Both the position numbers and the translations under genes were made by a program. Positions 15,152 through 62,586 of a stretch of 64,000 nt of DNA are shown here, in pieces. The first letter of the stretch is position 1, and every line of letters starts with the position of its first letter. The notes under the pieces are model-generated. The model saw only the letters and a list, made by a program, of their open reading frames with translations, was not told the DNA's origin and ran no database searches. Origin of the DNA: Narcine bancroftii (taxonomy: Eukaryota); the NCBI RefSeq assembly GCF_036971445.1, contig NC_091474.1:124000001-124064000 (forward strand), read 5' to 3'.

Positions 15152-15502
15152 ACCCACCCCCTCACGGAGAGAGCAGCCCCTCGCCACGTTGGCATGAAAT
15201 TCATTTCCTGTCCTCGTTCTCTGCCCTTGCCCATAGATTTCCCTTCATTGCTGCTTGTCAGGGCTCGTCTATTTTACAAACGTGACCTTCGGCCGATAGA
15301 CTTTCTCTTTGGAAATTACTAAGATGATGCGCGAATCCGTCGACACCGGTTACCCCCCCCCCCACACCAAACTCTGGTCCGGGAACACTCGCTTGTCTCG
15401 TCTCCGGCTGAGCTGAAGCCCCTCAAATCGGCTCCGTATATTCACACACAGAGCTGGGGATATAATTAATCGACATTTCCAATGGTATTTATAAGAACAA
15501 AT

Positions 15503-15757
15503 GGGCCGCACGGTTGGCGAAGCGTTGAGCGCGACGTCTTGACGGCGCCAGCGATCGGGACGCGGGTTCGAATCCCGCGCTGTCTGTCAGGAGTTGGAAC
15601 GTTCTCCCCGTGTCTGCGTGGGTTTTCCCGAGGACTCCCGTCTCCTCCCTCCTTCTAAACGAACCGGGCTGCAGGGTAATTGGGTGTAAATTTGGTGACA
15701 CAGACTCGTCGGCCGGAATAGCCTGTCACTATGCTGTATGTTTAAATTAATTTAAAA
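15503..15757 (+). mobile_element. tRNA-derived V-SINE (HE1-like)
   Basis: A-box-like TGGCGAAGCG, B-box GGTTCGAATCC, V-domain GTTCTCCCCGTGTCTGCGTGGGTTT, a CR1-like tail and an AT-rich end. Confidence 0.8.
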
Positions 15758-15774
15758 TATTCAGCGAAACTCTA

Positions 15775-16040
15775 GATTCCCTGAAATTGGCGGGCGGTTT
15801 GAAAATAAAGAGCAGCCAATCAGACTGCAACCTCTGAGCCGCGTGATGGCGGAAGTCTGACCCGCTGTCAAAAATATCCAAATGTGGCCAGAGATAACAT
15901 TGCCCGGCCGCCCCAGATCTTCAAACTCTCTCCTTTCTATCCAGTTGATGACAGGATGCAGCCAAACGCTGCCTTAAAATGTATAATTGTAATCTGCTGA
16001 TGTCAATCAGAATTCCTGGGCGTATTGAACATGGAACAAC
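15775..16040 (+). promoter_or_regulatory. Orphan H3-like promoter (E2F/CDE-CHR plus CCAAT) with no downstream gene
   Basis: TTGGCGG-GCGG-TTTGAA at 15787-15803 followed by CAGCCAATC; homologous to the H3 upstream region 23360-23485. Confidence 0.6.
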
Positions 16041-16889
16041 ACAGCGGAGTTCAGGCCCTTCGGTCCTCGATGTTGGCAAACAAGTCAGCAAAAGGACGCA
16101 AGGTTGTTCCGAACAGGATACAGACGGTGATGGAGGGATGACGGGCTTGCGATGGAACGTCACTTCACAGCAGGGGACCGCAGCAGCCGCCCTAGATCAA
16201 CGCTTGGATATGTGATCAGGGAGCTTCCAGCCAATGCCAGTATTGATAGGAGTCGAGACATGAGATGGTAATCAGTTGGTATGTCGGGGACAGCATTGTC
16301 CCATGGAATTTAATCCTAGTGAGTCCATGCGCATATATTTTTTGGAGGAGCAGAATGGCCCTGACGGATGAACAGAGGGACCTTGGCTTTGAAGTCAATG
16401 ACCATATTTCCTAGAATAGATCCAGCTGCGTGAGGGATTATGGGCAGGGAAGACAGACATGGCTCTGCAGAGTTTTAAGACGCAGAGAGCGGACGTGAAG
16501 GCCGAAGCGGACTGTTGAGGTTGTCAGCCCGCACCGGTGGCCCGCTGACGGCTACCACTGTCCTGTCGGCTCCCGCCGCCCCTGCCTTGAGGGGTCATGG
16601 AGGGAGAGGGGTGAACGGGGAGATGGGTCACAGGCTGACGTCGTCATCAGACGCCCCTAACCTGCCGCTTGGAGCGGCTGGATAATTATAAGTGACGGAG
16701 GACCTATCCCCGAGAAGAGTTGCAATTGGTACATTCAGAAAGCCTTGTCTCTAGGTGAAAGGGCGGAGACTTTGTCTCGGGTAATTTCTTGCTTGAAAGG
16801 GAATGATTCTCTCCTGTAGATTCTTCAAACTCGGTGTTTCCGCATTCAAGGCAGGGACTGCCTTCTGTTACTGGAGGCGGTCGGGGTCT

Positions 16890-17025
16890 GTGATTGGTGG
16901 CTGTGACATATCCAATGAAATTGTTTAGAGGAAACTCTTGCTGTTCATTCGCCAAATGGACCAATGATACACGTTGCGTCCCCATTCCCTTATTAGCATA
17001 GCATGAGGGCTCTGCCTATTTAAAC
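16890..17025 (+). promoter_or_regulatory. H2B promoter
   Basis: Several CCAAT/ATTGG boxes, an octamer-like ATTAGCAT (~16992) and TATTTAAA (~17017). Confidence 0.75.
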
Positions 17026-17076
17026 CACACTCGTTCTTTCTTAAGTTTATTTCTGTGTGTGTAATCGAGAGAAGAA

Positions 17077-17448
17077 ATGCCTGACTCGAAACTAGCGTCC
17101 AAGAAGGGCGCCAAGAAAGCGGTGTCTAAGCCAACTGGCAAAGGTGGCAAAAGGCGCAGAAGGTCGAGAAAGGAGAGTTATGCCATCTACATCTACAAAG
17201 TGCTGAAGCAGGTTCACCCCGACACTGGGGTCTCCTCCAAGGCCATGAGCATCATGAACTCGTTCGTCAACGATATTTTCGAACGCATCGCGGGCGAAGC
17301 TTCCCGCCTGGCCCATTACAACAAGAGATCGACCATCAGCTCCCGGGAGATTCAGACCGCCGTGCGCCTGCTGCTGCCCGGGGAATTGGCCAAACACGCC
17401 GTGTCGGAGGGGACAAAGGCGGTGACCAAGTACACCAGCTCCAAGTAA
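17077..17448 (+). CDS. H2B: Histone H2B, replication-dependent
   Basis: 123-aa H2B with a canonical core; stem-loop GGCTCTTTTAAGAGCC at 17488-17503 and HDE GAAAGAG. Confidence 0.98.
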
Positions 17449-18286
17449 AGCCCCCACCAAGTGCCGACGACTCGAACCGAAAACAACGGCTCTTTTAAGA
17501 GCCACTTCCAGTCTCACTGAAAGAGTTCTCCGAATCCCCCTGCGTGGAATTGGAGCAGAATGGGCTCTGGTTCTATTTGTTTCCGGGTTTGTGGAATTGC
17601 CGACGTGTTTGGGAGGCTGGTGTCACTGGCGATCTCATCCTCGTATCGCTCCTGATTTCCTGCCCCCTGGACTGACGGTAAATTAACCCTCTACTGATTT
17701 TGAAATACTTTACCCACGTTTTTACAACCAGAGCCGATTAATGCAACTAAAAGTTGTTGATAACGTTATTAATTGCTGTGTTGGCGACATTTTAACTGGA
17801 TTTCCCCGTATTGTAACAGCTGATCAGATTTCTACTCGGGAACATTATTGGATTGAACCTGAGAGTCTGTAGGTGCTGTTATTGCATTAAAAACATGAAC
17901 CCGTTGGAGTAATACAGCAGGTCTCGCAGCGTTCACAGCAGGTAAAGGTATAACCAACATTACAGGCTTGAGTCCTTCAATATGCGAGTAAAAAGCAGGC
18001 AATGTCTTGGCGCTGCCGTCTCGGATCCGCCTGCAGTTTGTAAACAGGAGGTGTGTTTGGTGGGGGGGGGGCGGAGGGCGGATGCGCTCATTTTCCGGAG
18101 AAATTGTGGGTATCGAGGTCTGAAGCGGGCCAGAGACAAATATTAATTCAATTAAGGGAGGCCGTGGGGGACGGTGGTGAAGGAGAAACATGAGAAGGAC
18201 AGATCCAATTTATTCTGCGCTACAAAGAGAATGGGGTGTGACAAATGCACTCCCACAGCTGCCGTTCGTCCTTCCACACACTGAGT

Positions 18287-18703
18287 GGCCCTGAAAAGAG
18301 CCTTTCGGTCTCCGATCGATGATTGTCCGCTTTGCTGCTCTTGGGGCTGGCGGCTCCGCTGCCTTCCTTGGACAACAGCCCGGTCTGGATCTTCAGCAGC
18401 ACCGCGCCCTGAGCGATGGTCACCACTGCCAGCAGCTTGTTGAACTCCTCGTTGTTGCAGGTGTATCGGGGTGATGCGGGTCTTCTTGTCTGGGGCCGTG
18501 TTGCCGGCAGCTCGAGAATTTCAGCCATCAGATACTCGAGCACAGCACCCAGATAGACCAGGGCTCTGGCGCCCACCCGCTAGGCAGCGTTCCCCTTTCT
18601 CATGAGCCTGTGAACATGGCCCACTGGGGAACTGCAGTCCGGGACGAGCGAGACTTTGCCTTGGACCAAGTTTTGCCTCCTTTCCCTCGTCCCACACAGG
18701 CAT
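18287..18703 (-). pseudogene. Histone H2A pseudogene (copy 1)
   Basis: H2A motifs [28 protein letters not shown] and [20 protein letters not shown] are broken by frameshifts, an in-frame TAG and deletions. The stem-loop is retained at 18287-18302. Confidence 0.93.
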
Positions 18704-19639
18704 TTTCGTGAACTCTTGCAAAATGAATGAGGGAATCCTCCCGCACTTGCCCTCCCTGCAGGTTCGTTGGGGAAGGGGGTAGAATACGGAGTGCGCTGCT
18801 GATTGGCGGAGCAACACTTCATCTCATTGGTGACCGGCGGCTCATTCACCAATGAAAAGTGAACACACAAAAAAAAGTAACCGGCGGAAAATAAGCACCA
18901 ATGACCAAAGGACATGAAATTTCAAAATGTCGCCAAAGTAAAACTGAAAAATAGGGCCGAAAACACCAAATTCCTGACAGATATATTTGAACATGAAATC
19001 CCTACTTCGCCGGGCGTTCGCTCCGGACCCACTCACAAAACCTACGGAGGGAAAGAGATAAACTGTGGGAGCCACAAGTCCCCCCCACCCCGTTCAGAAA
19101 CAACTGCTGCCCCTCAACAACAAATTCAGTCAGAAACTTAAGACTCTTACTTTTGTACGTTAGTGATTTTTTTTCTCAGTATTCCATGTCTTTATTTGTG
19201 GAGGGTTGAGTCAATTTTTTTTGCATTACCAATACATTGTATTGCCTTGTCCTCAGGAAAAAGGATCTCAGGGTTATGTGTAATGTCATGAACGCCCTCT
19301 GACAATAAATCTGAATCTGAGCCTGAGTTCATTCTGAGATGAGAGATGCCGCAAATTTCATTTCCCATTTCTTTGAACATCTACAAAGACCGGAAAGAAT
19401 GCCAACTCACAGAATATGGTTGTGGTCAATCTTTGTGGCAATGGAATTAGATTATAGACAGAATGCTCTTCACGGGACATTGATGTCACACTGAATCTCC
19501 TCATGAAGTATATCCGCCGGTGAGCCTTTTCATGATTATATCGACAAGGAGGCACCGGGTCTGATCATCAGAGATGTTGATACCAGTAAATTCATAGTTC
19601 TTTCTCTCCATTGATGATCACTCAATGAGGCCTGGGTAT

Positions 19640-50009: not shown

Positions 50010-53000
50010 GCAGAGGTGCAGAAAGAGGTGTGGAAATAGAGGGGTAAAAACAGAGGTGGGGAAAAAGTGGTGTGCAAACACAGGGGTGAAACCAGAAGGG
50101 TGGAAAGAGAGGGTAGAAAAAGCTGGGTGGAAATGGAGGAGTGGAAATGGAGGAGTGGAAATAGAGGGGTGGAAATCGAGGGGTGGAAATCGAGGGGTGG
50201 AAACGGAGGGGTGGAAACAGAGGGGTGGAAATGGAGAGGTGGAAATGGAGGTGTGGAAACTGGACTAGAATCAGAGTTGGGGAAATAGAGGTGTAGAATC
50301 AGAGGGGTGGAAATAGGGGTAGAAACAGTGCAGGGGAGACAGAGGTTGGGAAACAGGGTGGAAATGGGTAGAAAAAGAGGGGTGGAAACAGAGGGGTGGA
50401 AACAGGGGGTGGAAACAGGGGGTGGAAACAGGGGGTGGAAACAGAGGGGTAGAAACAGATGTGGGGAAACAGTGGGGTGAAAATGGAAGGGTAGAAATGG
50501 AAGGTGGGAAACTGAAGGGGGGAAACAGAAGGGGGGAAATAGAAGGGGGGAAACAGAAGGGTACAAGTAGAGGGGTGGAAAAAGAGGAATGAAAACAGGG
50601 GTGGAAACAGGATAGAAAAGAGGGGAGGAAAGAGAGGGGTAGAAGCATAGGTTAGGAAAGAGAGGGGTGGAAAAAGAGGTGGGAAAACAGGTGGAGAAAG
50701 AGAGGTCTGGAAATGGGTGTAAACACAGGGGTAGAAATAGTACAGGGGAAACAAGTTGGGAAACAGAGGATTGTAAACAGGTGGTGGAAACAGAGAGGTA
50801 GAAACAGTAGGGTAAAAACAGAGGTGGGGAAAAAGAAGTGTGCAAACTCAAGGATGGAAACAGAGGGGTAGAAAGAGGGTAGAAATTGTTGTGTAGAAAC
50901 CGGGTTGAAAACAAAGGGCTGGAAACAGAGGGGCAGAAACAGTGGACTAGAATCAGAGTTAGGGAAACAGAGGTGTAGAAACAAAGGGGTTGAAACAGGG
51001 GTAAAAACAAAGGTTGGAAAACAGAGGGATGGAATCAGAGTTGGGGAAACAGAGGTGTTGAAACAAAGGGGTAGAAACAGAGGGGTATAAACAAAGGTTG
51101 GGAAACTGAGGGGTTGAAACAAGAGGTGGAGAAACAGATGAGGAGAAAGAGAGGTATGAAAAATGAGTGGTGTGAACAGAAGGGTAGAAACAGTGTAGGG
51201 GAAACAGATGTTCAGAAACAGAGGATTTGAAATGGGATGTTGAAACGGAGGTGTAGAAACAGGGGTAAAATCAGAGGTGGGGAAACAGAGGGCTGGAAAC
51301 AAATAGAGGGCTGGAAACAAAAAGAGGGTCGGAAACAAACAGAGGGGCGGAAACAAACAGAGGGGCAGAAACAAACAGAGGGGTGGAAACTGAGGGGCGG
51401 AAACTGAGGGGTGGAAACTGAGGGGTAGAAACAGTGGAGGGGAAACAGAGGTGGAGAAACAGATGTGTGGAAACAGGTAGATGCAGAGGGGTAGAAGCAG
51501 AGGGGTAGAAGCAGAGGGGTAGAAGCAGAGGGGTAGAAGCAGAGGGGTAGAGGCAGAGGGGTAGAGGCAGAGGGGTAGAAGCAGAGGGGTAGAAGCAGAG
51601 GGGTAGAAGCAGAGGGGTAGAGGCAGAGGGGTAGAGGCAGAGGGGTAGAGGCAGAGGGGTAGAAGCAGAGGGGTAGAAGCAGAGGACTAGAATCAGAGTT
51701 GGGGAAACAGAGGGGTAGCATCAGAGGGGTAGAATCAGAGGGGTAGAAACATAAGTTGGGAAACAGAGGGGTGGAAACAGAGGGGTGGAGCAGAGGGGTG
51801 GAGCATAGGGGTGGAGCAGAGGGGTGGAGCAGAGGGGTGGAGCAGAGGGGTGGAAACAGGGCTGGAATCAGAGGGGCAGAAACAGAGGGGTAGAGCAGAG
51901 GGGTGGAAAAAGTGGACTAGAATCAGAGTTGGGGAAATAGAGCTGTGGAATCAGAGGGGTGGAAACAGAGGGTTGGAAATAGACGTGGGGAAATAGATGG
52001 GCAGAATCAGAGGTGGGGAAACAGAATGCTGGAAACAGACGAGTGGAAACAGACGAGTGGAAACCGATGTTGGGAAATATGTGGATGGAATCAGAGGGCT
52101 GCAAAAGGAGGAGTGGAGACAGGGGAAATAGAAGAGTGGAAACAGATGGCTGGAATCAGAGGGGTGGAAACAGTGGTGGAGAAAGAGAGGGGTGTAAACT
52201 GAGAGGTAGAAACAGTGCAGGGTAAACAGAGGTTATGAAACAGGATTGGAAATAGGGTGGTGGAAACAGAGGGGTAGAAACTGATGATGGGAAATATCTA
52301 GGTGGAATCAGAGGCATGCAAACAGATGATTGGAAACAGAGGGTTAGAAAAAGAGGTGGGGAAACAGAGGGTAGAGTGAGAAGGGTGGATCCAGATGGGT
52401 GGAAACAGATAGGTGTAAACAGAGGTGTGGAAATCATATGTGGAAAGAGAGGGGTGGAAACTGAGGAGTGTAAACAGAGGATTGGAAACAGAGGGGTAGA
52501 AACAGATGTGTGGAAACAAAGGGGTGGAAACAGAGGGGTGGAAAAAGATGTGTGGAAAGAGAGGAGTGGAAATAGAGGGTAGAAATAGAGGGGAGGAAAC
52601 AGGTGTAGAAATAGCGGGGTAGAATCATAGGTTGGGAAAAGAAACAGTGCAGGTTAAACATAGGTTGGGAAACAGAGGATTGGAAATAGGGGGATGGAAG
52701 CAGAGGGGTAGAAACAGAGGGGTAAAAAGAGAAGTGGGGAAACAAAGGTTGGGAAACAGAGGGGTGGAATCAGAGGTGGGGAAACAGGGTAGAGTCAGAG
52801 CGGTGGAAGCAGATGGGTAGAAACAGTGGATAGAAAAAGAGGGGAGGAGACAGAGGTGTAGAAACAGAGGGGTAGAAACATAGGTTGGTAAAGAGAAGGG
52901 GTGGAAACAGAGTGGAGAAAGAGGTGTAGAAACTGAGAGGTGGAAACAGTGCAGGGTAAACAGAGGTTATGAAAAAGGATTGGAAACAGGGTGGTGGAAA

Positions 53001-56000
53001 CAGAGGGGTAGAAACAGAGGGATGAAAACAGAGGTGGGGAAACAGGATTAGAAACAGAGGGTTAGAAACAGAGGTGGGAAAACAGAGGGTAGAGTCAGGA
53101 GGGTGGATGCAGATGGGTAGAAATAGGTAGGTGTAAACAGAGGTGTGGAAATCATATGTGGAAAGAGAGCGATGGAAACTGAGGGGTAGAAACAGACGAC
53201 TAGAATCAGAGAAACAGGGGTGGAAACAGAGGGGTGGAAACAGAGGGGTGGAAACATAGGTTGGTAAAGTGAAGGGTGGAAACAGAGGGGTGGAAGCAGA
53301 GGGCTGGAAACATAGGTATGGAAACCAAGGGGTGGAAACAGAGGGGTGGATATAGAGGATAGAAAAAGAGGGGAGGAAACGTGTGGCAACAGAGGGGTTG
53401 AAACATAGGTTGGGAAAGAGAGGGGTGGAAACTGATATGTGGAAACAGAGGTGTGAAAATAGAGGGGTGGAAACAGTGGGAGAAACAGTGCAGGGTAAAC
53501 AGGTAGGGAAACAGAGGATTGGAAACGGGAGGTGCAAACAGAGCGGTAGAAACAGAGGGGTGGAAACTGATATGTGGAAACAGAGGTGTGAAAATAGAGG
53601 GGTGGAAACAGTGGGAGAAACAGTGCAGGGTAAACAGGTAGGGAAACAGAGGATTGGAAATGGGAGGTGCAAACAGAGCGGTAGAAACAGAGGGGTGGAA
53701 ACTGATATGTGGAAACAGAGGTGTGAAAATAGAGGGGTGGAAACAGAAGTGTGGAAACAGAAGGGTAGAAACAGTGCAGGGGAAACAGAGGTTGGGAAAC
53801 AGAGTGGTTGAAACAGAATGGTAGAAATGGAGGTGTGGAAACAGAGGTGAAGAAAGATGTGTGGAAACAGAGCAGTGTAAACAGAAGGTTAGAAACAGTG
53901 CAGGTTAAACAGAGATTCGGAAACAGAGGATTGGATACAGTGTGTTGAAACAGAGGTGTATAAACAGAGGGGTAAATACGGAGGTGGGGAAAAAGAGGTG
54001 TGGAATCACAGAGGTGGAAACAGAGAGGTTGAAAGAGAGGGTATAAAAAGATGGGTGGAAACAGAGGGGTATAAACATAGGTTGGAAACAGAGGGGTGGA
54101 AATGGGTAGAAACAGTGCAGGGGAAACAGAGGTTGGTAAACAGGGTGGAAAGAGGGGTAGAAAGAGGGGTGGAAACAGAGGGGTAGAAGAAGAGGGGTGG
54201 AAACATAGGGGTGCAAACAGTGGATTGGAAACAGATGTGGGGAAATAGCATGGTTGAAACAGAGGGCTGGAAGCAGAAGGGTGGAAACAGAGGAGTACAA
54301 GTAGAGGGGTAGACAAAGAAGGATGAAAACAGAGGGGAGGAAACAGGGTAGAAAAGAGGGGAGGAAAGAGGGGTAGAAAAGAGGGGAGGAAAGAGAGGTA
54401 GAAGCAAACAGGTTGGAAAACAATGGATTGTAAATGGGAAGTGGAAACAGAGGGGTAGAAAGAGTGGGATAAAAACAGAGGTGGGGAAAAAGAGGTGTGC
54501 AAACTCAGTGATTGAAACAGGGGTGGAAAGAGAGTGTAGAAAAAGTTGGGTGGAATCAAAGGTGTAGAAACAGAGGGTTGAAAACAGAGGGGTGGAAACA
54601 CAGGGGTGGAATAGAGGGCTGGAAACAGAGAGGTGGAAACAGTGGACTAGAATTAGAGTTGGGGAAACAGTGGAGTAGAAACAGAGGGGTGGAAACGGAG
54701 GGGTGGTAACAGAGGGGTGGAATAGAGGGATAGAAACAATGCAGAGGAAACAGGTTGGGAAACAGAGGATTGGAAACGGGTGTTGGAAACAGAGAGGTAG
54801 AAACAGAGGGTTGGAAACAGAGGTTGGGAAATAGATGGGTGGAATCAGAGGTGGGGAAACAGAGGACTGGAAACAGACAAGTGGAAACAGAGGGGTAGAA
54901 ACAGATGTTGGGAAATTATGGGTGGAATCAGAGGGCTGCAAAAGGAGGAGTGGAGACAGAGGGTTAGTAATAGAAGTGTGGAGACAGAGGCGGGGAAAGA
55001 GATGTGTGGAAACAAAGGGGTGGAATCGGATGAGTGGAAACAGAGGTGTTGGAACAGATGGGTGGAAACAGAGGGGTGGAAACAGAGGTGGGGAAAAAGA
55101 GGTGGGGAAACAGGTGGGGAAACACTGAGGGGGAAACAGGTGGGGAAACACTGAGGTGGAAACAGGGGTGGAAAGAGACAGGTTGAAACAGAGTGGTGGA
55201 AACTGAGGTGTGGAAACAGGACAGGAAACAGAGGTGGGGAAACAGAGGGGTGGAAACACAGGTGTTGAAACTGAGGTAGGGAAACATAGGTGTGGAAAAA
55301 GAAGGGTGGAAACAGAGGAGAGGAAGCAGATGGGTGGGAACAGAGGTAGGAAAACAGAGGTTAATAAAGTTAGTGGTGGAAACTGAGGGGTAGAAACAGA
55401 GGTAGAGAAACAGAGGTGCAGAAATAGATGTGTAGAAACTGAGGGGTGGAATCAGAGGTATAAAAACAGAGGTGGGGAAACAGAGGTGGGAAACAGAGTT
55501 GTGGAAATAGACGTGGAAATAGAGGGGTGGAAACAGAGGTGTGGAAACAGAAGTGTAGAAACTGAGATGGGGAAACAGAGGTGTGGAAATAGAAGGGCAG
55601 AAACATAGCGGTGGAAACCAATGGGTCAAAACAAAGTGGTTGAAACTGAGGTGTGGAAATTGAGGTATGGAAACAGAGGTGCTGGAACAGATGGGTGGAA
55701 GCAGAGGTGGAGACACAGAGGTGGTGAAACAGTGGTGTGGAAACAGACATGGAGAAATCAAGGAAGGGAACTAGAGGTGTGGAACGAGATGGGTGGAAAC
55801 AATGGTGTAGAAACATAGGAGGTGAAACAGAGGTGTGAAAACAGGTGTTGAGAAAGAGGAGTGGAAACAGATGTGTGGGAACAGAGGTGTGGAAACAGTG
55901 GAATGAAAACAGATGGATGGAAACAGATGTGTGGGAATAGAGGGCTGGAAACAGGTGTGGAAACAGATGTAGAGAAATTGAGGTAGAGAACTAGAGGTGT

Positions 56001-58545
56001 GGAACCAGATGGGTAGAACTATATGGGAGGAAACAATGGTGTAGAAATATAGGTGTGAAAACAGAGGTGTTGAGAAAGAGGAGTGAAACAGATGGGTGGA
56101 AACAGATGTGTGGGAACAGAGGTGTGGAAACAGATGGGTGGAAAAAGAGGTTTGGGAACAGAGTGGTTGAACTGAGGGGTGGAAATAGAGAGGTGGAAAC
56201 AGAGGTGGGGAAACAGAGGTGGGGAAATAGAGGTGGGGAAACTGAGGTGGGGAAACTGAGGTGGGGAAACTGAGGTGGGGAAACAGTCGACTGCAAACAG
56301 AGGAGTGGGAACAGGGGGCTGGAAACAGGGTTGGAAACCCTTTCTACACATCTGTTTCTACCCTTCTGTTTCCACCCCTCTGTTTCCACCCCTCTGTTTC
56401 CACCCCTCTATTTCCACCCCTCTATTTCCACCCCTCTATTTCCACCCCTCCGTTTCCACCCCTCTGTTTCCACCCATCTGCTCCAACTCCTCAGTTTCTC
56501 CACCTCTGTTTTCACCCATCTGTTTCCACTCACCTGTTTCCCTACCTAGGTTTAAACACCTCTGATTCCACCTCTGTTTTCACATCTCTATTTCCGCACC
56601 TGTTTACACCCGTCTGTTTCCATATGTCTGTTTCCCTACCTCAATTTCAAAACCTCTGTATCCACCCCTCTGTTCACACATCTCTTGTTTCCCCTCCTCT
56701 GTTTCCACTCCTCAATTTCCCCACCTCTGTTTCCACCCGTCTATTTCCACACCTGTTTCCCCACCTATGTTTCTATACCTCTGATTTCACCCCTCTGTTT
56801 CCAACCCTCTGTATCCCTTCCTCTGAGTCCACCTGACTGTTTCCACCTGTCTGTTTCCAGACCTCTGTTTCACCACCTTAGTTTTCATCTGTCTGTTTCC
56901 ACTCCTCATTATCCACCCCTCTATTTCCACACCTGTTTCCCCACCTTATTTGTCCACTTCCATACCTCTGATTCCACCCCTCTGTTTCCCCACCTCTGTT
57001 TCCACCCATCTCTTTCCACTCCTCTGTTGCAACCCCTCTGTTTCCACACCTTTGTTTCCCTACCTCAGTTTCAACACCTGTGTTTCCACCCCTCTGTTTC
57101 TAAACCTCTGTTTCCCTACCTCAGTTTCTGCACCTCTGTTTCCACCTGTCTGATTCCACAATGCTGTTTCTCCACCTTACTTTCCACTGGTCTGTTTCCA
57201 CTCCTCTTTTTCCACCTCTCTGTTTCCACACCAGTTTCCCAACCTTTGTTTCTACCACTCTCTTTCCACTCCTCTGTTTCCACATCACTGTTTCTTCAGC
57301 TCTGTTTCCACCATCTGTTTCTCCACCCTGTTTCCACTGCTCTGTTTACACCAATCTGTTTCAACACTGCTGTTTCCCCACTTCAGTTCTCCACCTCTTT
57401 TTCCTCCCCTCTGTTTCCACCCATCTGTTCCAACACCTCTGTTTCCATCAGTCAGTTTCCACTCCTCTGTTTCCCTACCTCGGTTGCTACACCTCTCTTT
57501 CAACCCCTGTTTCCACACCTATCTTTACATCCCTTTGTTTCCACACATCCCTTTCAACCACTCTGTTTCGACCCAAATGTTTCCACCCCCTCTATTTCCA
57601 CATGTCTATTTCCACACATCTACTTCCCCACCTCTGTTTCACCACTTCTGTTTCAATACCTCTGATTCCACCCCTTTATTTCCACTCCACTGTTTCTTTA
57701 CCTCTGTTTCCACCACTCTCTTTCCACCCCTCTGTTTTCCCACCTCTCTTTCCATCCCTCTGTTTCCACACCTGTTTCAACCCCTCTGTTTCAACCCCGC
57801 TGTTTCAACTCCATGGTTTCAACCCCATGGTTTCAACCCCACGGTTTCAACCCTGCTGTTTCCACCTGTTTGTTTCACCACCTTAGTTTCCACCCTTGTT
57901 TCCACTCCTTTGTTGCAACCCCTATTTCCACCCCTCTGTTTCCCTACCTCAGTTTCAACCCGTCTGTTTCCACCCTTGTGTTTCAACCTGTTTCCACACC
58001 GCTGTATCCCCACCTCTGTTTCTACACCTGTGTTTCCACCCATCTGTTTCTACACCTTTGTTACCCCTCTACTGTTTATACCCCTCTGATCCACCCCTGT
58101 GTTTCCATCAATCTATATCTACCCCTCTGTTTCCTCCCTTCCGTTTCCCCTCCTCTGTTTTTACCCCTCTGTTTCTACCATTCTTTTGCCACCTCTCTGT
58201 TCCCTCCTTGTTTCCATTCCTTTGTTTCCCCACCTCTGTTCTCTCCCCTCATTTTCTACCCTTTCTTTCCACCCCTTTCTTTCTCCACCTGTTTCCACCC
58301 CTCTATTACTACCCCTCAGTTTCTATCTGTTTCCACACCTCTGTTTCTACCCATTTATTTCCACCCATTTGTTTCTACCCTTCTGTTTCCTCCTCTATGT
58401 TTCCACCCCCTGTTTCCATTCCTCAGTTTCCCCATCTGTTTCTCCTGCACTGTTGCTATTCCTCTGTTTCCCACCTCTGTTTCCAAACCTCAGATTCCAC
58501 CAATCTGTTTCCACACCTCAGTTTCCACACCTCTGTTTCCACCCC
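50010..58545. repeat. G-rich satellite, ~14-bp unit GGAAACAGAGGGGT, with an internal strand switch at ~56337
   Basis: Purine-rich on the plus strand from 50010 to ~56337, then the complementary TTTCCACCCCTCTG form to 58545. Confidence 0.97.
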
Positions 58546-59296
58546 TTAGATATATTTCATGAGGAGAATCAGTGTGATACCAATGTCCAGTGAAGAGCAT
58601 TCTGTCTTTTATCTAATTCCATTGCCACAAAGGTTGACCACAACCATATTCTGTGTGTGGGCATTCTTTCAGCTCTTTGTAGATGTTCAAAGAAATGGGA
58701 AAATGAAATTTGCGGCATGTCTCATCCCTCAGTGAACTCAGGCTCAGATTCAGATTTATTGTCAGAGGACATACATGCATTACACATAACCCTGAGTTCC
58801 TTTTCCCTGAGGACAAGGCAGGATTACCATGTATTGGTAGTGCAAAAATAAATCGACTCAACCCTCCACAAATAAAGACATGCAATACTGAGATACAATA
58901 TTACAAACGTACAAAAGTAATAGCCTTAAATAAGTCCCTGACTGAGTTTGTTATTGAGGGCTAGCAGCTGTTTCTGAACCTGGTGGGGGGGGGGTTTTGT
59001 GGGTGGATCCAGAGTGAACGCCTGGTGAAGTAGGGATTTCGTGTTCAAATATATCTGTCAGGAATTTGTTGTTTTTCAGCCCTATTTTTCAGTTTTACTT
59101 TGGCAACCTTTTCAAATTTCATGTCCTTTGGTCATTGACGCTTATTTTCCGCAGATACTTTTTTTGTGTTCGCTTTTCATTGGTGAATGAGCTGCCGGTC
59201 TATTAGGCCTTTCACCTATGACCAATGAGATGACCTGTTGATCTACCAATCAGCAGCGCTCTCCCTATTCATCCCCGCCCCACGAGCCTGCAGGGA

Positions 59297-60231
59297 TCTG
59301 GATGTGGGGATTGGATGTAATATCTCCAAATTTGCAGATGACACTAAGCTAGGAGAGGTTGTATGCATGGAAGAGGGGGTCAGGAAGCTCCAGTGCAATT
59401 TGGATAAATTGAGGGACTGGGCAGATACATGGCAAATGCACTACAATGTGGATAAATGTGAGGTTATCCACTTTGGTAATACAAACCGGAGGGCAGATTA
59501 CTATTTGAATGGCAATAGATTAAGAGATGGGGAAGTGCAGAGAGACCTAGGGGTACTTGTACACCAGTCTCTGAAGGCGAGCATGCAGGTACAGCAGGTG
59601 GTTAAAAAGGCAAATGGTATGTTGGCCTTCATATCAAGAGGGTTTGAGTATAGGAACAAGGATACCTTACTGCAGCTGTACAGGGCCTTGGTGAGACCAC
59701 ACCTGGAGTATTGTGTGCAGTTTTGGTCACCTTATCTAAGGAAGGATGTTCTTGCAATGGAGGGAGTGCAGAGGCGATTCACCAGGCTGATACCTGGAAT
59801 AGCAGGAATGACTTATGAGGTTTTGCTCAAATTGGGATTGTACTCCCTGGAGTTTAGAAGATTGAGAGGGGATCTCATAGAGACATATAAAATTCAGGCA
59901 GGACTGGACAGAATGGATGCAGATGGGATGTTTCCAATGATGGGAAAATCCAGAACCCGGGGCCATGGTTTGAGGATAATAGGCAAACCATTTAGGACCG
60001 AGATGAGGAGGAATTTCTTTACCCAGAGGGTGGTGAATCTGTGGAATTCATTGCCACAGAGGGCAGTAGAGGCAGGTTCATTAAATCTATTTAAGAGGGA
60101 ATTAGACATATTTCTTCAGTATAAGGGTATTAAAGGTTGCGGAGAGAAGTCAGGGACGGGGTACTGAACTTTAAGATCAGCCATGATCTCGTTGAATGGC
60201 CTACTCCTGCTCCTATCTTCTATGTTTCTAT
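59297..60231 (+). mobile_element. Young 5'-truncated CR1 LINE inserted in the pseudo-H2A promoter
   Basis: Uninterrupted ~290-codon RT C-terminus (SKFADDTKLG...LEYCVQFWSP...RVVNLWNSLP) with a TTCTATGTTTCTATG tail; absent from the other arm. Confidence 0.95.
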
Positions 60232-60265
60232 GATTCCCTCATTCATTTTGCCAGAGTTCACGAAA

Positions 60266-61129
<864 letters not shown>

Positions 61130-61423
61130 ACTCAGTGTGTGGAAGGACGAACGGCAGCATTTGTCACACCCCATTCTCTTTGTAGCGCAGAATAAATTGG
61201 ATCTGTCCTTCTCATGTTTCTCCTTCACCACCGTCCCCCACGGCCTCCCTTAATTGAATTAATATTTGTCTCTGGCCCGCTTCAGACCTCGATACCCACA
61301 GCCCATTTCACTCCTTTTCCCCTTTCGTACAATTTCTCCGGAAAATGAGCGCATCCGCCCGCACCGCCCCCACCTCACCTCCTGTTCAGAAACTACAGGC
61401 GGATCCGAGACGGCAGCGCCAAG

Positions 61424-61696
61424 TCAGGTGAAGGAAAGGATAGAATTTTTAAAGTTGTGATAAAATGGGTGGCATGTGTCAGCCTCCAAGCCTTGCATAA
61501 TGCACTTTCAGGTCGACTCCCAGCAATTCCTTTTGAATCTATTCAAGCACTGGATGTTGTGATGAGACATCTCCCATCCATGACATACACTCCAGTAGGC
61601 CGTTCATTCTTCACGCCATCCGAGGGATGCTCCAATCCACTGGGTGGGGGTAGGGAAGTCTGGTTTGGATTTCATCAGTCTGTCCGGCCTTCTAAC
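61424..61696 (+). pseudogene. AGO2: Inserted fragment of Argonaute-2 coding sequence (N-domain/L1 region)
   Basis: 89 open codons [89 protein letters not shown], matching vertebrate AGO2 (SEGCSNPL is AGO2-type). Absent from the other arm. Confidence 0.93.
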
Positions 61697-62214
61697 CCTG
61701 CTTTTTACTCGCATATTGAAGGACTCGAGCCTGTAATGTTGGTTATACCTTTACCTGCTGTGAACGCTGCGAGACCTGCTGTATTACTCCAACGGGTTCA
61801 TGTTTTTAATGCAATAACAGCACCTACAGACTCTCAGGTTCAATCCAATGTTCCCGAGTAGAAATGTGATCAGCTGTTACAATACGGGGAAATCCAGTTA
61901 AAATGTCGCCAACACAGCAATTAATAACGTTAGCAACAACTTTTGGTTGCATTAATCGGCTCTGGTTGTAAAAATGCGAGGGTAAAGTATTTCAAAATCA
62001 GACCAACTGCCGTCATCCAGCGGGCAGAAATACAGGAGAGATCGGAAGTGAAACCAGCCTCCCAAGCACGTCTGCAATTACACAAAACCGGAAACAAATA
62101 GAACCAGAGCCAATTCCACGCAGGGGGATTCGGAGAACTCTTTCAGTGAGACTGGAAGTGGCTCTTAAAAGAGCCGTTGTTTTCGGTTCGAGTCGTCGGC
62201 ACTTGGTGAGGGCT

Positions 62215-62586
62215 TTACTTGGAGCTGGTGTACTTGGTCACCGCCTTTGTCCCCTCCGACACGGCGTGTTTGGCCAATTCCCCGGGCAGCAGCAGGCGCA
62301 CGGCGGTCTGAATCTCCCGGGAGCTGATGGTCGATCTCTTGTTGTAATGGGCCAGGCGGGAAGCTTCGCCCGCGATGCGTTCGAAAATATCGTTGACGAA
62401 CGAGTTCATGATGCTCATGGCCTTGGAGGAGACCCCAGTGTCGGGGTGAACCTGCTTCAACACTTTGTAGATGTAGATGGCATAACTCTCCTTCCTCGAC
62501 TTTTTGCGCCTCTTGCCGCCTTTACCAGTTGGCTTAGACACCGCTTTCTTGGCGCCCTTCTTGGGCGCTGCTTTCGAGTCAGGCAT
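62215..62586 (-). CDS. H2B: Histone H2B, replication-dependent (second copy)
   Basis: 123-aa H2B with a stem-loop at 62160-62175 and the same promoter elements as copy 1. Confidence 0.98.

Follow-up and report, generated by a model that had tools for sequence, protein, structure and literature searches.

An intron-less AGO2 fragment in a histone-cluster spacer of the Narcine bancroftii genome

The locus and its insert

The window analysed here is a 64,000-nucleotide stretch of Narcine bancroftii DNA (NC_091474.1, positions 124,000,001 to 124,064,000). It carries an inverted duplication (15199-19514 versus 64435-58549), in each arm of which an H2A pseudogene and an H2B gene converge on a spacer. 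The inverted arms agree with the histone-cluster duplication described in the earlier note, but not with a duplication of two arms only, since at least eight related spacer copies are spread over ~200 kb. The right arm has 273 bp (61424-61696) in place of the 6 bp ACATTG of the left arm (18005-18000, minus strand). The features are as follows:

18000..18005, minus strand: ACATTG, the empty site of the inverted paralogous arm, its first base derived
59297..60231, plus strand: 5′-truncated young LINE with a weak RVT_1 match (E 0.039), a microsatellite tail, a 15-bp target deletion and no TSD
60232..61154, plus strand: H2A pseudogene pointing toward the insert, with a decayed stem-loop at 61109-61154
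60480..60943, plus strand: solo LTR with TG..CA ends and a 5-bp TSD, 97-98% identical to many dispersed copies
61424..61426, plus strand: target bases TCA, of which the CA at 61425-26 is also source sequence (2-nt 5′ microhomology)
61427-61692: AGO2-derived part, 266 bases, 262 of which match the source exons
61427..61584, plus strand: AGO2 exon A part, in sense orientation, differing from the source at 61429, 61499 and 61584
61585..61692, plus strand: AGO2 exon B part, fused directly to exon A without the 6,222-bp intron, stopping 29 nt before the exon end
61693..61696, plus strand: 4-nt filler TAAC, unlike the source and unlike the target
61697..61845, plus strand: older, 5′-truncated dispersed repeat with a decayed hammerhead-like motif, common to the empty paralogues
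62215..62586, minus strand: intact H2B ORF pointing toward the insert, with a histone stem-loop at 62136-62180

The LINE, which we take to be CR1-like, was placed in the H2A 5′ region, 1.2 kb upstream of the insert, and has an open 290-codon frame. The solo LTR is present only in the filled spacer copy and belongs to a recent high-copy family (1,634 candidates); TATA-like and AATAAA words are found on its plus strand. The insert sits at the 5′ edge of the dispersed repeat, which by resemblance is presumably Penelope-like. Among the 34 matches listed, this remnant is 72-81% identical to dispersed copies in 33, and 89% in one short match. A custom hammerhead core motif was found in 8/40 loci of the repeat, and the four loci searched against Rfam gave no hammerhead match at E≤0.1. 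Co-insertion of the AGO2 piece with the Penelope-like remnant was rejected, the remnant being common to paralogues down to 74-83% identity.

Source gene, other AGO2 copies and support for the junctions

The earlier note had assigned the encoded peptide to about G121-S209 of AGO2, and it did align with PDB AGO2 chains over residues 121-209 (E 1.5e-52), as well as to Pfam ArgoN/ArgoL1. Its 89 stop-free codons do form an open frame, but this is no signal, given that 85% of 20,000 trials with four random substitutions stay open. A search of the fish's own genome returned six matches from six candidates: the insert, two AGO2 exons on contig C5 (99% identity) and three exons of other Argonautes (72-79%). 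The donor on C5 is an intact multi-exon AGO2 gene, and the source exon shares 98% identity with AGO2 proteins of sharks, pointing to an elasmobranch. Exons A and B, which we take to be exons 4 and 5 by human numbering, are separated by a GT-AG intron of 6,222 bp (3′ boundary of exon A ...ATGAG|GT, 5′ boundary of exon B AG|ATACACT); AGO2 exon 3 was absent from the 10 kb upstream of them. The intron named in the earlier note is thus present in this genome, and the insert reads straight through its position, skipping it exactly, which requires an RNA template. An RNA origin is near certain. The match to the source crosses the exon-exon junction, as expected of an internal piece of spliced AGO2 mRNA, and a source within a single exon, the DNA-level possibility raised earlier, does not fit an insert that spans this junction.

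The insert differs from its source by a synonymous change at 61429, D>N at 61499, R>T at 61584 (the final base of exon A) and a synonymous change at 61681, the sole one in the exon B part; both synonymous differences are A>T. Shark AGO2 proteins keep D and R at the positions changed at 61499 and 61584, so that D>N and R>T arose on the insert side. Divergence between insert and source is 1.5% (95% CI 0.4-3.9%). Between the flanks and the nearest empty copy there are differences at 8/754 bases, a depth equal to that of the insert and of the neighbouring solo LTR. Three of the four insert-source differences (61429, 61584 and 61681) are base-to-complement changes; they are common to the public contigs.

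A whole-protein search of the genome, with a stricter first look, gave 53 matches, all of them in the multi-exon genes, in the insert or in a single duplicated exon close to AGO2. A second copy of one AGO2 exon (query residues 429-476) lies at G000:C5:353586981-353587124, ~120 kb beyond the last exon. The left-junction 22-mer is unique in the genome, and no further AGO2-derived pieces were found in the window plus 20 kb. Carriage of the piece by a multi-copy transposon, another possibility raised earlier, failed on this single-copy result.

Twenty-four public runs were listed and four examined, as Logan contigs, which are neither raw nor long reads. Part of the insert was found in 4/4, and among the runs carrying it none is recorded as RNA. 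In X1 (study P1) both junctions are bridged, the left by 33 nt into the insert, with no differences and with the private alleles present. In X3 (P1) the right junction is bridged, and in X4 (P2), which may be the assembly's own sample, the left junction appears with 30 nt of flank, one short of our bridging rule. In X9 (organism B, P3), a 190-nt contig of depth 2.2 shows no difference from the exon junction through the filler to 29 nt of flank. The derived allele of the left arm is also found in organism B, which is hence a very close relative or the same species. The junctions or private alleles recur in contigs of three studies, under two organism labels, so that the insert is no assembly chimera, a possibility that the earlier note had raised. 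A contig of X3 was read as spliced AGO2 mRNA with source alleles, crossing the same exon junction; it is called spliced because the shark protein reads RDRVELE. Another X3 contig runs from the right-arm flank into an empty site, via a 31-nt shared word and with a paralogue allele. In X3, an otherwise right-arm-like contig that goes on into an empty site has a 3-base variant at 61242-61244, and would be either a graph mosaic or an empty allele.

These data bear on one alternative to direct capture of RNA, namely a DNA-level copy from an existing processed AGO2 pseudogene or circle, or a chimera. Some room for it is left by the genome searches, which give lower bounds (the whole-protein search had a stricter first look), and by junctions known from contigs, not raw reads. 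Against it, only one spliced copy was found within those bounds and no other AGO2 retrocopy; the proximal AGO2 3′ UTR (1.5 kb tested) is single-copy, and junction contigs with insert-private alleles occur in X1, X3, X4 and X9. We consider this reading largely refuted and highly improbable.

Target site and mode of integration

Seven other spacer copies on contig C15 are empty: four read TCATTG, two TCGTTG and one, the left arm, ACATTG. Seven empty paralogues make the insertion the derived state, and the four TCATTG copies indicate that TCA is target and that TTG was lost, so that three target bases disappeared, not six. The earlier note had taken the left arm to preserve the pre-insertion site; that arm is indeed empty, and 273 bp do stand against its 6 bp, but ACATTG is not the best pre-insertion state, its first base being derived.

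Three marks of end joining were observed: the 3-bp target loss, the CA microhomology at the 5′ end and four untemplated bases at the 3′ end. The microhomology, which the earlier note had proposed to look for, is at chance level (0.05) when its 2 nt are taken alone. The filler TAAC has no convincing local template (only 4-6-nt matches, the best 5-6 nt), and its length equals the number of replaced bases. Base for base, it complements ATTG, the four bases in whose place it would stand; we know of no mechanism for such a filler. As stated earlier, the insert ends bear no poly(A), no splice site and no TSD of 5 bp or more (at most 3 nt), nor a poly(A) signal; the TT/AAAA target of an L1-type processed pseudogene or class 1 TSIP is likewise absent. 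An RNA structure fixing the ends was rejected, because the insert, folded as a proxy, gave a z of -0.14 with 82/200 shuffles folding equally well, and its 5-bp terminal pairing is at chance level.

At the 3′ break the AGO2 source reads TCATT, in register with TCATT of the empty target, and the filled site retains only TC of this word. The probability of such a match by chance is ~0.0012 at a fixed place, perhaps 0.01-0.02 allowing for post-hoc looks; it occurs at 2/315 positions of the two exons. This match suggests that a target end, from a nick or a break alike, may have primed on the RNA, and it speaks against a purely random patch.

The neighbouring LINE provides a local baseline. The 15 target bases that it removed are still present in the left arm, in another paralogue and in four outgroup H2A loci. 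Its family has at least 40 scored copies, with a TTTCTATG-type tail and mostly without a TSD, and includes copies of 98-99% identity. The baseline consists of the 20 top matches to this one family, with TSDs judged without empty sites. Poly(A) was seen in 0/19 copies with a tail anchor, and the element's own tail was kept in 19/19 copies with a visible 3′ end. Where both ends were in view, TSD candidates of ≥7 bp were found in 2/15 copies and of ≥5 bp in 4/15 (null 23/210), and 6/15 had none. As local LINEs ordinarily lack poly(A) and mostly lack a TSD, those absences do not diagnose endonuclease independence. TPRT can also yield target deletions, as parts of PMC2881922 describe. The remaining distinction between the insert and the local LINEs is that the insert has neither an element tail nor an mRNA 3′ end.

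The earlier note had argued for endonuclease-independent repair rather than LINE retroposition. That proposal remains plausible, although the footprint it relied on is shared by the young LINE. We lean slightly toward an AGO2 mRNA patch end-joined into a pre-existing double-strand break. Spliced AGO2 mRNA would have been reverse-transcribed in the germ line, either by a repair polymerase or by the enzyme of a retroelement (the genome has young LINE and LTR families), and the cDNA piece joined as a repair patch into a break that no retrotransposon endonuclease would have cut. Neutral decay after insertion could then explain the 4/266 differences, two of them non-synonymous. The insert starts and stops within coding sequence and includes neither 3′ UTR nor element tail, and the combination of microdeletion, microhomology and untemplated bases resembles the class 2 pattern discussed below. 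The preference is only moderate because the young LINE family also lacks poly(A) and mostly TSDs; in addition, the neighbouring LINE itself lost target bases.

A tentative alternative, which we think possible but doubtful, is endonuclease-dependent TPRT in which a resident non-L1 element, a CR1-like LINE or a Penelope-like one, acted in trans; AGO2 mRNA would have been primed internally via TCATT and the 3′ junction altered during or after resolution. It would make sense of the in-register word and of a filler as long as the replaced bases; the local LINEs leave no poly(A) and a short or no TSD, and their family is similar in age to the insert. Cartilaginous fishes have 14,081 retrocopies according to the portion of bioRxiv 10.64898/2026.06.26.734816 drawn on here, and in an anole the enzyme of a Penelope-like element cleaves ATT and initiates internally (parts of PMC11167929); the present site has ATT beside a Penelope-like remnant. 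However, the primer bases ATTG should survive, whereas TAAC is found in both organisms A and B, and the same passages of PMC11167929 have the enzyme starting at a non-homologous site in its own RNA. Furthermore, the sections of PMC5322556 cited here give tail-less retropseudogenes TSDs of 8-35 nt by definition, link these pseudogenes to relaxed L1 and report none in chicken or platypus. PMC2912911, of which only a part is drawn on, is a further source bearing on this mechanism.

It is unlikely that the insert is what remains of a longer 5′-truncated retrocopy, or of an element-mRNA chimera, after a later deletion had removed the 3′ part, possibly from one TCATT word to the other. Microhomology-mediated deletion would also account for the TCATT match, and the cluster is rich in indels and conversion. 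Such a history needs a multi-kb deletion ending ≤3 bp from the original site within ~1.5% divergence; no other AGO2 piece lies nearby in the window plus 20 kb, and the 3′ junction is identical in organism B.

Comparison with known captures, and possible transcription

The proposed end-joined capture of an AGO2 mRNA patch has close counterparts. In the part of PMC4516963 consulted, Cas9 breaks captured internal, intron-skipping mRNA pieces (Pcnt, Inadl) without poly(A) and with short microhomology. The insert is likewise an mRNA piece cut at both ends, with an intron skipped and one-sided short microhomology, and at 266 nt it compares with 310 nt for the Inadl capture. It differs in that those captures followed Cas9 cleavage in mouse zygotes, and the examples of natural origin given there were MuERV-L pieces, whereas here a host-mRNA piece is natural and inherited in a cartilaginous fish. 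Microdeletion, microhomology and untemplated bases are class 2 TSI/TSIP features in the text of Onozawa and Aplan (PMC5110952) used here. Like class 2 TSIPs, the insert has no TSD, poly(A) signal or tail, shows these three marks and has an intact donor, and its length falls inside the 73-414 bp experimental range of class 2 insertions. Four features of class 2 TSI and RMDR are found together in it: a distant template with an intact donor, a skipped intron, no TSD or poly(A), and end-joining marks. Class 2 TSIPs are human polymorphisms contrasted with L1, a contrast that is weaker here because those marks are missing from the local LINEs as well.

Tailless retropseudogenes (Noll et al., PMC5322556, in part) are also 3′-truncated, without a tail and possibly base-paired internally with the target; here TCATT is read in source and empty target and is not kept in the filled site. 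Unlike the insert, they have 8-35-nt TSDs and an L1-like A-rich target. With processed pseudogenes, common in cartilaginous fishes (bioRxiv 10.64898/2026.06.26.734816, in part), the insert shares an intron-less copy of host mRNA, but it has no mRNA 3′ end and both its ends lie inside coding sequence. The event belongs to an already known kind, with no new mechanism and no sign of function. A literature search, with most subscription papers outside its reach, found no prior report of this insert. Most documented mRNA patches that skip an intron come from engineered breaks or are known as insertion variants in humans; the insert adds a clean, naturally arisen and inherited example from a cartilaginous fish, with seven empty paralogues that fix the target to the base. 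It also brings a caution: 'no poly(A), no TSD' is not diagnostic of endonuclease-independent capture where LINEs are not L1-like.

The insert is likely to be without function. A coding role was rejected: the 170-codon open frame has no Met ahead of the insert, and 2/4 changes are non-synonymous, at shark-conserved positions. In X4 (DNA), the empty-site joint has a depth of 38.5 versus 9.5 for the filled junction; X1, RNA by our guess, has no empty-site joint listed and the filled copy throughout, and X3 has both forms. These uncontrolled contig depths give a weak hint that the filled copy is transcribed. The contrast is not evidence of expression, because contigs drop variants and give no strand, and there is no silent control stretch. 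Transcription from the H2A pseudogene or the solo LTR would be sense to AGO2, and H2B read-through antisense. It would be a long shot that H2B read-through, running past the stem-loop at a distance of 440 bp, selectively transcribes the filled copy into a 266-nt antisense RNA with 98.5% complementarity to AGO2 mRNA; if true, an accidental repair patch would be a source of small RNAs against the slicer itself.

Several other observations were made around the cluster. The H2B upstream region (15199-16790 versus 64435-62838) is 99% identical between the arms, the spacer 94% and the outer parts 86-89%; this uneven identity suggests, as far as sequence can tell, patchy gene conversion or nested duplication. 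The left-arm H2B (17077-17448) is unlike the right-arm H2B in its N-terminal tail. Adjoining the right arm, 50010-58550 is a degenerate short-period repeat of ~8.5 kb (~70% self-identity) whose strand flips near 56340. At L020:1363-1509 the dispersed repeat occurs twice in inverted order, as a long hairpin with many sub-threshold miRNA-model matches.
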